Source: Picochlorum sp. SENEW3 (Eukaryota). From it: a stretch of 64,000 nucleotides of DNA. Shown here piece by piece: positions 16,110-19,166 of this stretch (position 1 is its first letter; the number at the start of each line of letters is the position of its first letter). A model generated the notes under the pieces. That model did no database searches, was not told where the DNA came from, and worked only from the letters and a program-made list of their open reading frames with translations. Where the stretch lies: contig CP120457.1 of the NCBI GenBank assembly GCA_034226945.1, positions 434,001-498,000 of the forward strand, read 5' to 3'. The position numbers and the translations under genes are program-made.

Positions 16110-16194
16110 TAGTAGTAGTAGTAGTAGTAGTTCACAGTGTTACCAACCTATAATAATAATGAAAACATCATGTATTGATGCAAAATGAAACAGG

Positions 16195-16229
<35 letters not shown>
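16110..16229. repeat. Microsatellites (TAG)n and (TTG)n
   Basis: The agt run at about 16110-16131 and the ttg run at about 16198-16229. Confidence 0.9.
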
Positions 16230-17831
16230 CAAAAATCCCAAACGGCTTTCGCTCCTGCCAGTACTGTCCATGCCTCTCCTTGTCTGACTGCCACCATACC
16301 AGGGTGGCATGACATTCCATTACCAAGATCGAATTCCGTCGAAAACTCGAGAGTATCGGGTCTCATGTCAACTGCATTTGATGATGTGTTGACCATGCTC
16401 TTTCCCATGCTGGCCACCCATCTGGCAAATCCGTCAGCCATCTTGTCACCGACTGAAACATTCCATGTGGTTGTATTTGCATTCATCATAGTTTTAGGAG
16501 AATCGCTTGCCATCCATCCATGGACGGCGAGATTCTGTCCTAGGGAGAGGGCAAAGCTGGTGCTCACCTCCACTGCGGGAGTGGCACCATCATTCGATAC
16601 CCTGGAGGATGTCAAAAAGTCTGCGGCGTATCGAACCAGGTTGGACCCCTGATCTCCTTGTTGAGATTCTAATAAAGATATTCCAATCGATAGCGCTTTG
16701 GTTGGCGCAGCGAGAAGTTGCACCAGGGCCTTATCATCTGCCTCCTCTCCTTCATTCTTGAAATACGCTCCAGTGAACCAGAGTCTCGATGAGCTCAGCG
16801 TCGCTCCGACCACGGATCCTCGCCCCCTATCATGTAATAAAGGGTTGCCTTCTGAAGTCCCTGCTGTAAGTCCACGTCCAGAGAATGGATTCAGTGTGTA
16901 TGTCACATCATTCCCACGAGCACCAAATGGTGCAAACATGAGCCTGACATGTGGACTCAACCCAAATGAATACAAAACCTTTTGAAGATTAAATTGATCT
17001 TCTGACGAACCGTCAATATCAACATCAGCGAGAATGAAATCTTTACCTTGCCGGAACTGCCCACGCGTCTGCAATGTCAATGACGTTCCCAACTGCATCC
17101 CAGTCTCAACCAGAGGATCCACAGTAGAGTCTGGATCGCCACCAGACCACAGCAGCCCCCCACCAAGAACAAGTCTTCCACCAACGGATCGCATCAAACC
17201 GCTCCCGGATCGCTGCACATCCACGTTCCTGTGCGCTCCTGACGATTCCTTGTGTGGAGAAGACACCCGAGAGGCATGCATCCCTGGAGCAGCATCCTCA
17301 TCATCACGTATGATACCCAATCGCTCCTCTACAGCAGATAATCGCTGCCTCACATCAACATCCTTTTCGAACAACTCACGCACAAGGCGTTTCAATGCAT
17401 TGATAGGATCCCTACACAGTCCATAGATATTGTTGTTTCAATTGTTCAACATCCATACACATTGCAGTGTCCACGTACGAGTCATACCCACGCTCTTCCT
17501 TCTTCTTTCTATCCCTCATCGATTTGAAATAAAAGGATGGTATACCAAGGACCATCAAACCAAGTATAAATGAGATGGAATCGAATCGTCGTTTTGGTTC
17601 GTCGTCGTCGCCAAAGTCGTCCCTCCAAAAGTTTTCACTTCCACCTCCACCTGGAGGACCTGCTCCATTGCATCGTATACGATTATGAATAGGTTTAGAT
17701 GTTTTTGATGGGAATGGAACTGAGGGAATCACTCTGATCACCCGAGTAGTAGTCCCTCGAGGAAACACTCCCGCCTTGGGACCGAAAGAGACCGCCACGT
17801 TTCCTCCTGCTCCTCTTGATATCCGGTGCAT
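16229..17831 (-). CDS. Plastid-targeted predicted beta-barrel, cyanobacterial-porin (OprB/SomA)-like
   Basis: Exons 17831-17479 and 17411-16229 join in frame (511 aa). Transit-like N-terminus, one hydrophobic helix, a coiled coil, then amphipathic strands ending in WDF. Confidence 0.6.
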
Positions 17832-17878
17832 CGCAATATATAAGGTATTATTACTATTGAATACTGAATGGCTCAATA

Positions 17879-19166
17879 TTACATACAGATGCAGGCGTGG
17901 CATTGTTGCCAATCTTTTGTCATCCTGCTATTTTTATTCGGATTCTGCCTGCTGTGTTGTTGTTGTTGGGTCTTGTTCGCACAATGGCAATCCTCATCAT
18001 AGTATCTCCAAGACCCGTATCCATACACACGAGCCATAATGGTGGCAAGTCGAGGATCATGCTCTATCAATCGATCACGAGTCTTGATTCCAGACGTCAC
18101 ATCATCCCTCTTGGTTGCATGAAACCACGCCTGAGACATTTCAGCCCAGTACTCTTCTGGATTGGCCATCACATAGCTCTGTGGATCATACATATTGTTC
18201 CGAAGGGCAGCATAGTAGGCATCCTTAATACCACAGTACAAGTCTGTATCATTATATAGTCCCAGATTCATGACGGCATGGGCGAATTCGTGAACTAGTA
18301 TAGATTCGTATGGATACCTGTCTTTTCCCACCACCCCAAGAATGTTGTCTTCTCCACAGCTGAGGACAGGACAGGCAACCGTCGCACCCAAACCGCGAGT
18401 ATCATGTTCAAATGATCTTTTTGAACTCGTGGAGGAACGAGTAGCATGTGATGGTGGCTCTATGTACTCTCCCCGCAGATGCGCATGAGCAGGTATATCA
18501 GTTGTTTTCTGATCACGCCCAATGATGGCAACTTCCAATCCCAAGCACAGCATGGAATCAATCATATGAAGAGGGACAGATTCCAACATCCGATCTATAA
18601 TCTCTATGGATTTCTCTACCGCAGCATACTCGACTGCATGCACAAAGGAACATATAGGTATCCCATGCGCCGTGGCCCCTCGGCATGTGTATTGTCCCCA
18701 CTCCTCATCCCGTGGACTCGGTAGACAGGAATGTATATGATGCAGTGGCACCAAGGCATCATGGCTGGTTACTTCTACGACACACATGTCCTGGGTGTTC
18801 GTGTATATAGACACTGTGCTGTACGAATCCTGCGCACAAAATCTACCAATGACCTGTCCCTGAGGATACAGCCGTACCACCCACGAGTGATTCACATACG
18901 TCTCTGCACCATTAGGGTAGTAGTACTGTTGATATACCAAGTATTCATAAAAATGAAGAAGAAGAAGAAGCAAACGAAAAAAGAGAGAAAGCAAAAGTTG
19001 CCGTACGTTGGGTATACACCTGCCCAGGGCAAATCCTTGTATACAGCCTCTCCTCTCCATCATGATGGATCCAGTACAAAGCCACCCCCTGCCCATCCGT
19101 CACATTTGATACTCGCACTAGAGCATGATCAGCTCTCCCTCTCATCTCTTGATCACTCCTCTTCAC
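17879..19166 (-). CDS. VHL-beta-domain plus zincin metallopeptidase (HEFAH)
   Basis: VALYWIHHDGEERLY...PGQVYTQ|QTYVNHSWVVR (VHL beta), then ILVHEFAHAV...EEYWAE...HDP. Start codon uncertain. Confidence 0.75.

Follow-up and report, generated by a model that had tools for sequence, protein, structure and literature searches.

A stalked 16-stranded porin of Picochlorum, probable chlorophyte ortholog of Arabidopsis UP1 and relative of cyanobacterial SLH/OprB porins

Introduction

The solute channels OEP21, OEP24, OEP37 and OEP40 have been described as not traceable to cyanobacteria (10.1101/2025.06.18.660430), chlorophytes have been credited with almost no solute barrels besides OEP21 (10.64898/2026.07.15.738633), and a TCDB survey recorded the cyanobacterial porin family in bacterial phyla only (PMC4827864). 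Here we describe a gene of the alga Picochlorum sp. SENEW3 located on the minus strand, at 17831..16229, of a 64,000-nucleotide stretch of contig CP120457.1 (the whole stretch that was analysed, hereafter the window, whose numbering is used throughout). We consider it probable (roughly 0.75) that the product is the chlorophyte ortholog of At1g11320/UP1 of Arabidopsis, a nuclear-encoded 16-stranded porin with a coiled-coil stalk that descends from cyanobacterial porins of the SLH-coiled-coil-OprB architecture and most likely acts as a pore of the plastid outer envelope.

At1g11320 (Q9SXB7, 424 amino acids (aa)) was first described as a predicted beta-barrel, for which HHomp recovered cyanobacterial SomB as a homologue with a probability of 100%, while the choice between chloroplast and mitochondrion was left undecided (Imai et al. 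2011, PMC3045335). Under the name UP1 it was later reported with an envelope enrichment factor of 8.0, and a fusion with green fluorescent protein (UP1-GFP) gave a signal at the chloroplast envelope only (Bouchnak et al. 2019, PMC6601204); a 2026 paper uses UP1 as an envelope marker (PMC13263057). A preprint (10.64898/2026.07.15.738633) describes the barrel family BUL16, which is 16-stranded with a variable, low-confidence N-terminus and passed the mitochondrial filters of that work; its localisation is given as unknown and its distribution as Magnoliopsida only, with absence from Chlorophyta. The term 'OprB' is absent from the main text of the same preprint, and 'cyanobacteri' appears there a single time, where the envelope's origin is mentioned in general terms.

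Two further systems serve as points of reference for the protein described here. The N-terminal extension of Toc75 combines an import signal with a polyglycine-containing envelope-sorting signal (PMC5147994), and OmpM1 of Veillonella parvula is a trimeric porin and a tether at the same time (PMC10628300).

Results

Relationship to cyanobacterial porins

The protein encoded by exon 2 (P0001; 16232..17410, minus strand) was scanned against the 18,950 models of NCBIfam and matched a single one, NF033921 (por_somb, 'iron uptake porin'), with an E value of 6e-9. Of 19 close relatives, 18 also matched this model, as did 45 of 67 further relatives, and the matches of the latter jointly span profile positions 50-464 of 485, the coiled coil (50-120) included. 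For profile comparisons we used a narrow profile of close algal homologues (A1) and a diverse family profile (A2). Among 5.8 billion proteins, the sole match of A2 outside the family was a cyanobacterial SLH+OprB protein (E 3.6e-4). When 25 cyanobacterial SLH/OprB porins, gathered around this one outside match, were aligned to A2 by hhalign, the score was 99.8% (E 1.9e-28, 374 columns), and the alignment extends from the coiled coil just after the SLH domain through the terminal Phe.

Conserved motifs of the two groups stand in register: L-x-K-V-L-Y-S-F is paired with L-D-x-L-x-Y-x-F-P, T-L-N-P-F with T-I-N-P-F, and L-E-F-S-T-E-F...H-P-G with E-A-F-Y-Q...T-P-G. The algal stretch APFGARGNDVTYTLNPFSGRGLT aligns with the conserved cyanobacterial D-D-V-T-x-T-I-N-P-F-D-G, and the algal ...KAVWDF end with cyanobacterial ...R-T-T-F-x-F. 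An initial annotation, made from the DNA alone, had proposed homology to SomA/B (OprB-family) porins on the basis of such motif pairs; the NF033921 match and the hhalign result bear this proposal out, its pairs are mutually aligned, and all motifs that it cited (RQRLSAVEERL, LQKVLYSF, GARGND, TLNPFSGRGL, GNPL, LEFSTEFDLGNGMSCHPG and GAKAVWDF) are present in the translation. In the ESM Atlas, the nearest clusters of P0001 were OprB/'iron uptake porin' clusters, mostly cyanobacterial (0.95-0.96). A control hhalign of A2 with four cyanobacterial Omp85 barrels, which are also 16-stranded, gave 0.2%.

Neither exon product (P0001, P0002) matched any Pfam family at E<=10, SLH (PF00395) included, and none of the 67 longer relatives had a Pfam OprB, SLH, Omp85 or lipase domain (E<=0.01). 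The loss of the SLH domain, also proposed in the initial annotation, agrees with these scans and with the alignment, whose first columns fall in the coiled coil behind the SLH domain of the cyanobacterial porins. Judged by sequence comparison, the protein would be a divergent descendant of the cyanobacterial SLH/OprB porins and not a member by the curated rule, and the family appears to have retained the stalk and the barrel and to have lost the peptidoglycan-binding SLH domain.

A tblastn search of plasmids with a cyanobacterial porin returned cyanobacterial porins and just two matches from other records, both to the SLH region. The cyanobacterial SLH/OprB porin genes are often found as tandem pairs on one contig (L009/L005, L013/L014 and L012/L016), and at least 8 OprB matches were counted in a single Nostocales genome (G002).

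Predicted fold

Two AlphaFold2 models were obtained, model 1 from a 19-sequence alignment (predicted local distance difference test score, pLDDT, 66.9) and model 2 from 106 sequences, cyanobacterial porins included (pLDDT 85.2, predicted template modelling score 0.77). In both, a single long helix at the N-terminus is joined by a disordered linker to 16 strands. The helix, a predicted coiled-coil stalk, comprises residues 120-149 (P0001 2-31; 17318..17407, minus strand, as are all features below unless stated otherwise); it begins with LKRLVRELF, the most conserved stretch of the family, and its successive 10-residue blocks have mean pLDDT values of 92, 93 and 76 in model 2. The linker (P0001 34-71; 17198..17311) is variable and poorly conserved, with pLDDT <50 in both models. 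The barrel occupies residues 193-511 (P0001 75-393; 16232..17188) and ends with the last strand and C-terminus ...LAGAKAVWDF (16232..16273), a candidate beta-signal with a terminal Phe.

Foldseek recovered 16-stranded porins with E values of 4e-9 and weaker. In all-against-all structural comparisons (VIA-align) the highest scores were those of OmpM1 (Z 19.5, root-mean-square deviation (rmsd) 3.6, 262 aligned residues), OprP (Z 19.4), Omp32 (Z 19.2) and Pseudomonas putida OprB (Z 19.0, rmsd 3.2, 238 aligned), followed by 18-stranded porins and Wzi (Z 15-16) and by Omp85-type barrels (Z 12-14). The beta-barrel foreseen in the initial annotation is thus recovered in the 16-stranded models, whose nearest solved structures by VIA-align include OmpM1, OprP and OprB. 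Sequence searches of the PDB with P0001 and with the family profile gave nothing meaningful, the best match being NanC with E 0.026 over 70 residues.

The stretch APFGARGNDVTYTLNPFSGRGLT (P0001 160-182; 16865..16933) comprises the last part of strand 5 and the first part of the long strand 5-6 loop, and it is the second most conserved stretch of the family after the start of the coil. In classical porins the loop L3, located at the strand 5-6 position in 16-stranded barrels, constricts the pore. By analogy, the APFGARGNDVTYTLNPFSGRGLT loop may be the equivalent of L3, and we regard its strong conservation as the clearest hint that selection maintains a defined channel.

Family membership and distribution

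A search with the exon-2 protein returned 20 proteins with E values from 1e-227 to 1e-54, and the profile of close homologues matched 139 proteins at E<=1e-3 among 1.84 billion representatives, a similarity far beyond chance. Named members come from Coccomyxa, Ostreobium, Tetraselmis, Cymbomonas, Chlorokybus, Mesostigma, the ferns Adiantum and Ceratopteris, Welwitschia, Amborella, the angiosperms Carex and Coptis and many others, and most of them are annotated as hypothetical or uncharacterised. Since chlorophyte, prasinophyte, streptophyte-algal, fern and gymnosperm members were found, the family is green-lineage-wide.

A maximum-likelihood tree was built from 87 of 106 rows, 19 angiosperm rows having been thinned out; it is unrooted, and its split between cyanobacteria and eukaryotes is trivial and is no evidence of origin. 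The core chlorophytes are grouped (23 rows, support 100), as are the ferns, the gymnosperm Welwitschia and the angiosperms (support 100), with Mesostigma, Chlorokybus and Cymbomonas at the base without resolution. The sequences fall into the same groups as the organisms, and the tree is consistent with an old, vertically inherited gene of the Viridiplantae.

Both described plant proteins fall within this family. P0118 corresponds to At1g11320, as it has 424 aa, contains SDGRTIGL (the motif of Imai et al.), and starts with MDPIAS and ends with LKSHWSL, matching the published UP1 primers (translated by hand). It was aligned to A1 by hhalign at 96.8% (E 2.2e-10, 350 columns) and is included in A2. 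P0222 is PIA58738.1, the BUL16 representative of the preprint 10.64898/2026.07.15.738633, and reached 98.4% against A1 (E 8.4e-15, 346 columns). By sequence, then, the Picochlorum gene and its algal relatives show the distribution of BUL16 to be other than Magnoliopsida only.

Misnomers are spreading among the members in NCBI and UniRef: 'GDSL esterase/lipase' (the Arabidopsis locus and several orthologs), 'Clusterin alpha chain like' and, in UniRef, 'Bacterial surface antigen (D15) domain-containing protein'. That the names GDSL esterase/lipase or Omp85/D15 barrel are right can practically be dismissed, although several members carry them and one preprint treats At1g11320 as a GDSL lipase, a lipid enzyme (10.1101/813725). 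The same preprint reports an association with the envelope that depends on cold. A GDSL lipase was rejected as P0001 and P0002 match no Pfam family at E<=10 and no lipase family was detected in the 67 relatives (E<=0.01); an Omp85/D15 protein (PF01103, POTRA) was rejected by the lack of a Pfam match, the hhalign value of 0.2% and Z scores of 12-14 for Omp85-type barrels as against 18-19.5 for porins.

Five fern members (P0054, P0066, P0088, P0082 and P0079) measure 700-950 aa, of which the N-terminal extension takes up 266-506 aa, and Adiantum has several copies of the gene. P0055, of 1331 aa, carries fused reverse-transcriptase RNase H domains, for which a retroelement insertion or a model artefact is the probable cause.

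N-terminal module and targeting

The part of the protein ahead of the stalk is composed of four successive elements. A candidate plastid transit peptide (residues 1-57; 17661..17831) is basic, rich in Ser, Thr, Pro and Gly and devoid of acidic residues; residues 1-66 contain 10 basic residues, 10 Ser/Thr and one acidic residue (E66 only). This composition fits a transit peptide, and the homologues of other chlorophytes begin with similar N-terminal extensions. A Gly-rich (NGAGPPGGGG) and then acidic (SENFWRDDFGDDDEPKRR) stretch follows (residues 55-82; 17586..17669), next the hydrophobic segment FDSISFILGLMVLGIPSFYF (residues 83-102; 17526..17585), which includes the top Kyte-Doolittle 19-mer of the protein, and finally the basic cluster KSMRDRKKKEER (residues 103-114; 17490..17525).

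The initial annotation had spoken of a poly-Gly stretch and a hydrophobic helix. A Gly-rich stretch is indeed there, without a long run: the run is GGGG, with 6 G in 15 residues, as compared with 9-12 G in 15 in homologues. The hydrophobic segment also stands, as a moderately hydrophobic one (Kyte-Doolittle 1.57 over 19 residues; 1.56-2.71 in homologues).

In chlorophyte models where 72 or more residues precede the coil, the hydrophobic segment (1.56-2.71) is present in 17 of 17, preceded in 16 of the 17 by a Gly-rich stretch (6-12 G per 15); six shorter chlorophyte models are without the module and, with starts close to the exon-2 boundary, give the impression of truncated gene models. Both elements are found in Tetraselmis, Cymbomonas and one further alga. 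In Mesostigma and the ferns the Gly-rich stretch is accompanied by hydrophobic segments that are weaker, and 12 of 12 angiosperms as well as Welwitschia have neither element. The order from basic N-terminus to Gly-rich stretch is thus conserved in algae, with a short Gly run in this species. At the other end of the protein, the C-terminus reads W-x-F in 21 of 24 chlorophyte models (two of the other three being run-on models), and angiosperm members mostly end with W-S-L. In three chlorophyte models (P0018, P0019, P0021), ...QWTV, just ahead of the last strand, is followed by an insertion or run-on instead of the LAGAK of the others, which looks like an unrecognised intron near the 3' end.

Green-algal transit peptides resemble mitochondrial presequences. 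The basic N-terminus might for this reason be read as a mitochondrial presequence, and the protein as a barrel of another membrane (e.g. the mitochondrial outer membrane) or as dual-targeted, a reading that we consider highly unlikely. It accords with the indecision of Imai et al. 2011 on the organelle of At1g11320 (PMC3045335) and with the localisation of BUL16 being called unknown (10.64898/2026.07.15.738633). It is opposed by the UP1-GFP signal and the envelope proteomics, which place UP1 at the chloroplast envelope (PMC6601204, PMC13263057), by the passage of BUL16 through the mitochondrial filters of the preprint (10.64898/2026.07.15.738633) and by the cyanobacterial ancestry.

The module also lends itself to another interpretation, namely that the protein is mainly an envelope tether and not (only) a pore, in which the hydrophobic segment anchors the chain in the inner envelope, the stalk and linker run across the intermembrane space and the barrel resides in the outer envelope. 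The membrane anchor would then have replaced the SLH-peptidoglycan anchor of the ancestor after loss of the wall, and seed plants would later have lost it. We hold this idea to be tentative and on the whole unlikely. The segment is located just upstream of the stalk, on the side where cyanobacterial porins have their SLH domain; together with the Gly-rich stretch it is conserved across chlorophytes and in Tetraselmis and Cymbomonas; the best structural match, OmpM1, is both tether and porin (PMC10628300); and the 30-residue helix and the linker of ~45 residues could, by our estimate, plausibly cross the intermembrane space. Nevertheless, the segment is only moderately hydrophobic (1.57), the basic cluster on its C-terminal side would face the intermembrane space in such a topology, the module is absent in 13 of 13 angiosperm and Welwitschia members and yet UP1 reaches the envelope (PMC6601204), and a cleaved sorting signal like that of Toc75 (PMC5147994) is an equally good reading of the module.

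Gene structure and neighbourhood

The porin gene runs on the minus strand from the ATG at 17831 to the TGA stop at 16231..16229, exactly in the place and orientation given by the initial annotation, in which the frame break had gone unmentioned. The first open reading frame (ORF) ends at 17412, and the second, in a different frame, extends to the stop at 16229..16231. Exon 1 (17479..17831) contains codons 1-117 and two bases of codon 118 and covers the protein from the transit-like N-terminus through the Gly-rich/acidic stretch and the hydrophobic segment to the basic cluster. The intron (17412..17478) is 67 nt long, reads GTACGT...TGTAG with GT..AG borders and lies where the frame changes between the ORFs, and exon 2 (16229..17411) encodes the coiled coil, the linker and the barrel and ends with the stop codon (16229..16231). 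Removal of the intron results in a joined coding sequence of 1536 nt, i.e. 511 aa plus stop, and the junction ...RGYDS/DPINALKRLV... agrees with the conserved 'GYD.DP..LKRLVRELFEK' of the homologues.

In a public contig of run X3 (~98% identical to the window) exactly the 67 intron bases are missing, with CT..AC on the plus strand and hence GT..AG on the gene strand, and a public contig of run X2 keeps the intron. Such contigs came from four runs and their kind is uncertain; the spliced joint of X3 is the sole evidence used from them.

The nearest named protein (99% identity) is the entry 'Picre1' of eukprot, which we take to denote Picochlorum renovo, a trebouxiophyte green alga. The public model P0013 of this entry, which fuses the upstream gene to the porin gene, was rejected, as the homologues stand alone. 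The X3 contig is unspliced from 17478 to 18100, across the fusion intron proposed by P0013, and therefore gives no support for the fusion. P0013 corresponds approximately to window positions 16800-19096; it is without the transit-like N-terminus and the last 200 residues, stopping in the middle of the barrel, and it is probably a chimeric, truncated annotation of the nearest strain.

The ORFs nearby encode ordinary eukaryotic proteins (glycosyl hydrolase 1, TPR and TPM+RING proteins), and no paralog of the porin gene was found within the 64-kb window. The upstream gene (17879-19096, minus strand) is an ORF of 405 aa that contains an H-E-F-A-H (HExxH-like) motif and matches no Pfam family. The RNA-like X3 contig is continuous across this gene and the porin gene, so their transcripts may overlap. 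The stop codon of the porin gene is followed directly, at 16196-16228, by a perfect trinucleotide repeat. It reads (CAA)n on the gene strand and on the other strand gives rise to a spurious ORF (16185..16652) that includes a poly-Val run; contigs of three runs end at 16238, the repeat being skipped by the alignment tool.

Discussion

Several observations weigh against the descent and function that we favour for the Picochlorum protein: (i) the NF033921 score is 35.1 bits as against a curated cut-off of 100, P0118 is among the 22 of 67 relatives without a match to this model at E<=0.01, Pfam OprB (PF04966) is unmatched at E<=10, and the hhalign of A1 alone with the cyanobacterial porins is weaker (94.7%) and covers the barrel only; (ii) the porin comparison set consisted of cyanobacterial OprB proteins, so the cyanobacterial source rests on the shared coiled coil and on the proteins that were matched; (iii) cyanobacterial porins were part of the alignment behind model 2, which makes its match to porin folds less than fully independent, model 1, made without them, has a pLDDT of just 66.9, and OmpM1, OprP, Omp32, OprB and DcaP are tied (Z 19.0-19.5), so the fold is to be named '16-stranded porin', of the trimeric type, and not 'OprB'; (iv) the GFP data on UP1 are silent as to which envelope membrane is labelled (PMC6601204); (v) the hydrophobic segment of the Picochlorum protein is borderline (1.57); and (vi) an in-frame ATG is present 24 codons upstream of the chosen (putative) start, and the stop of the upstream gene is just 48 nt from that start.

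The first two points, together with an identity to cyanobacterial porins of 13-19%, would also be expected if the porin likeness were not endosymbiotic, stemming either from a generic barrel and coiled-coil composition or from gain from other bacteria. We find this very improbable, as the alignment runs end to end, from stalk to terminal Phe, with conserved motifs in register, as the Omp85 control stayed at 0.2% and the sole outside match in 5.8 billion proteins was cyanobacterial, and as por_somb was the sole NCBIfam match for P0001 and 19 close relatives, other matches among the 67 further relatives being two weak and unrelated ones (E 5e-4 and 4e-3). Moreover, the tree within the family matches the green lineage's phylogeny, as expected of an ancient vertical gene.

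For the envelope porin that we prefer, the following course of events is proposed. Being the product of a spliced nuclear gene, the precursor is synthesised in the cytosol. Its basic N-terminus would direct it to the plastid, and the Gly-rich/acidic stretch and the hydrophobic segment may, in analogy to the bipartite signal of Toc75, hold the remaining chain in the intermembrane space, from which side the barrel would be inserted into the outer envelope by means of its C-terminal aromatic signal. Homology and fold make a trimeric diffusion pore for small solutes or ions the most likely product, the trimer being suggested by OmpM1 and the classical porins alone, and the conserved strand 5-6 loop would set the selectivity of the pore. 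The envelope location of the algal protein is carried over from the data on the Arabidopsis ortholog, this protein may conduct solutes, and its Gly-rich stretch may act in the manner of Toc75. The hydrophobic segment could be a retained membrane helix, as the initial annotation supposed, rather than part of a cleaved signal.

The core idea, a SomB homologue in the chloroplast envelope, is correct, has already been published for Arabidopsis and is not new. The papers on it surfaced under the locus name At1g11320 and not under porin and plastid terms. Not found in the literature, most subscription journals lying outside the search, and new to that extent are (i) the green-lineage-wide membership; (ii) the union of UP1, BUL16 and the algal proteins in one family; (iii) the retention of the stalk with loss of the SLH domain only; and (iv) the N-terminal module of algae and ferns that seed plants do not have. 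Records that did not cite each other are hereby joined, i.e. the SomB match of 2011, the UP1 marker of 2019 and 2026, BUL16 of 2026 and the wrong 'GDSL lipase' and 'D15' names. The Picochlorum gene represents an architecturally fuller member of the family, which corrects both the database names and the published distribution, and its N-terminal module, absent in seed plants, bears on the sorting of barrels to the outer envelope.

As the family is green-lineage-wide, descends from cyanobacterial porins and has an Arabidopsis member in the envelope, it is a strong candidate for the ancestral diffusion pore of green plastids, although functionally uncharacterised. A more speculative and rather doubtful extension is that a porin tethering the wall to the outer membrane was rebuilt in green algae, and ancestrally in the Viridiplantae, as a bridge between membranes, composed of an inner-envelope helix, a trimeric stalk and an outer-envelope barrel. 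Such a bridge, if real, would be a pore and at the same time a physical contact site between the two plastid envelope membranes, of which seed plants would have dropped the anchor. All three outer-membrane proteins that have been reported as conserved across cyanobacteria (PMC4365693) would in that case survive in plastids, this family beside Toc75/OEP80 (Omp85) and TGD4/LPTD1 (LptD).

Compared with known systems, the algal protein shares the 16-stranded barrel with P. putida OprB (PDB code: 4GF4; Z 18.2-19.0, rmsd 3.2-3.8, 238-248 aligned), the founding member of the Pfam family that holds the cyanobacterial homologues; OprB, however, is without a coiled-coil stalk, its Z scores are tied with those of unrelated porins, and the Pfam OprB model misses the algal protein. 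OmpM1 of V. parvula (PDB codes: 8BYM/8BYT) is the top structural match (Z 19.0-19.5, rmsd 3.5-3.6, 254-262 aligned) and has the same layout, a stalk helix ahead of a 16-stranded barrel, although no sequence relationship between the barrels was detected by the PDB sequence searches and OmpM1 is anchored to peptidoglycan by an SLH domain that the algal protein does not have. With Toc75 it shares the succession of an N-terminal import signal (a candidate one in the alga), a Gly-rich stretch and a barrel, which in Toc75 is in the outer envelope; it differs in its short Gly run (GGGG) followed by an acidic patch and the hydrophobic segment, and in having a porin barrel and not an Omp85 one. The Toc75 signal is composed of a stromal-type transit part and a polyglycine-containing part, which two peptidases remove.

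In UP1/BUL16 as in the algal protein, the coil opens with L-K-R-L-Q/V-R-E-x-F, the barrel has 16 strands, P-x-G-A...D and N-P motifs are conserved and a W stands at position -3. Seed-plant members have ~40 residues before the coil, with no Gly-rich or hydrophobic part, and mostly end with W-S-L, whereas the algal protein has an N-terminal module of 118 residues and ends with W-D-F. Unlike the cyanobacterial SLH/OprB porins (SomA/SomB; NF033921; TCDB 1.B.23, CBP family), the algal protein is without a signal peptide and without an SLH domain and is encoded by a spliced nuclear gene; what it has in common with them is the succession of coiled-coil stalk and OprB-type barrel, the conserved motif at strand 5 and the loop behind it, and the terminal aromatic residue.

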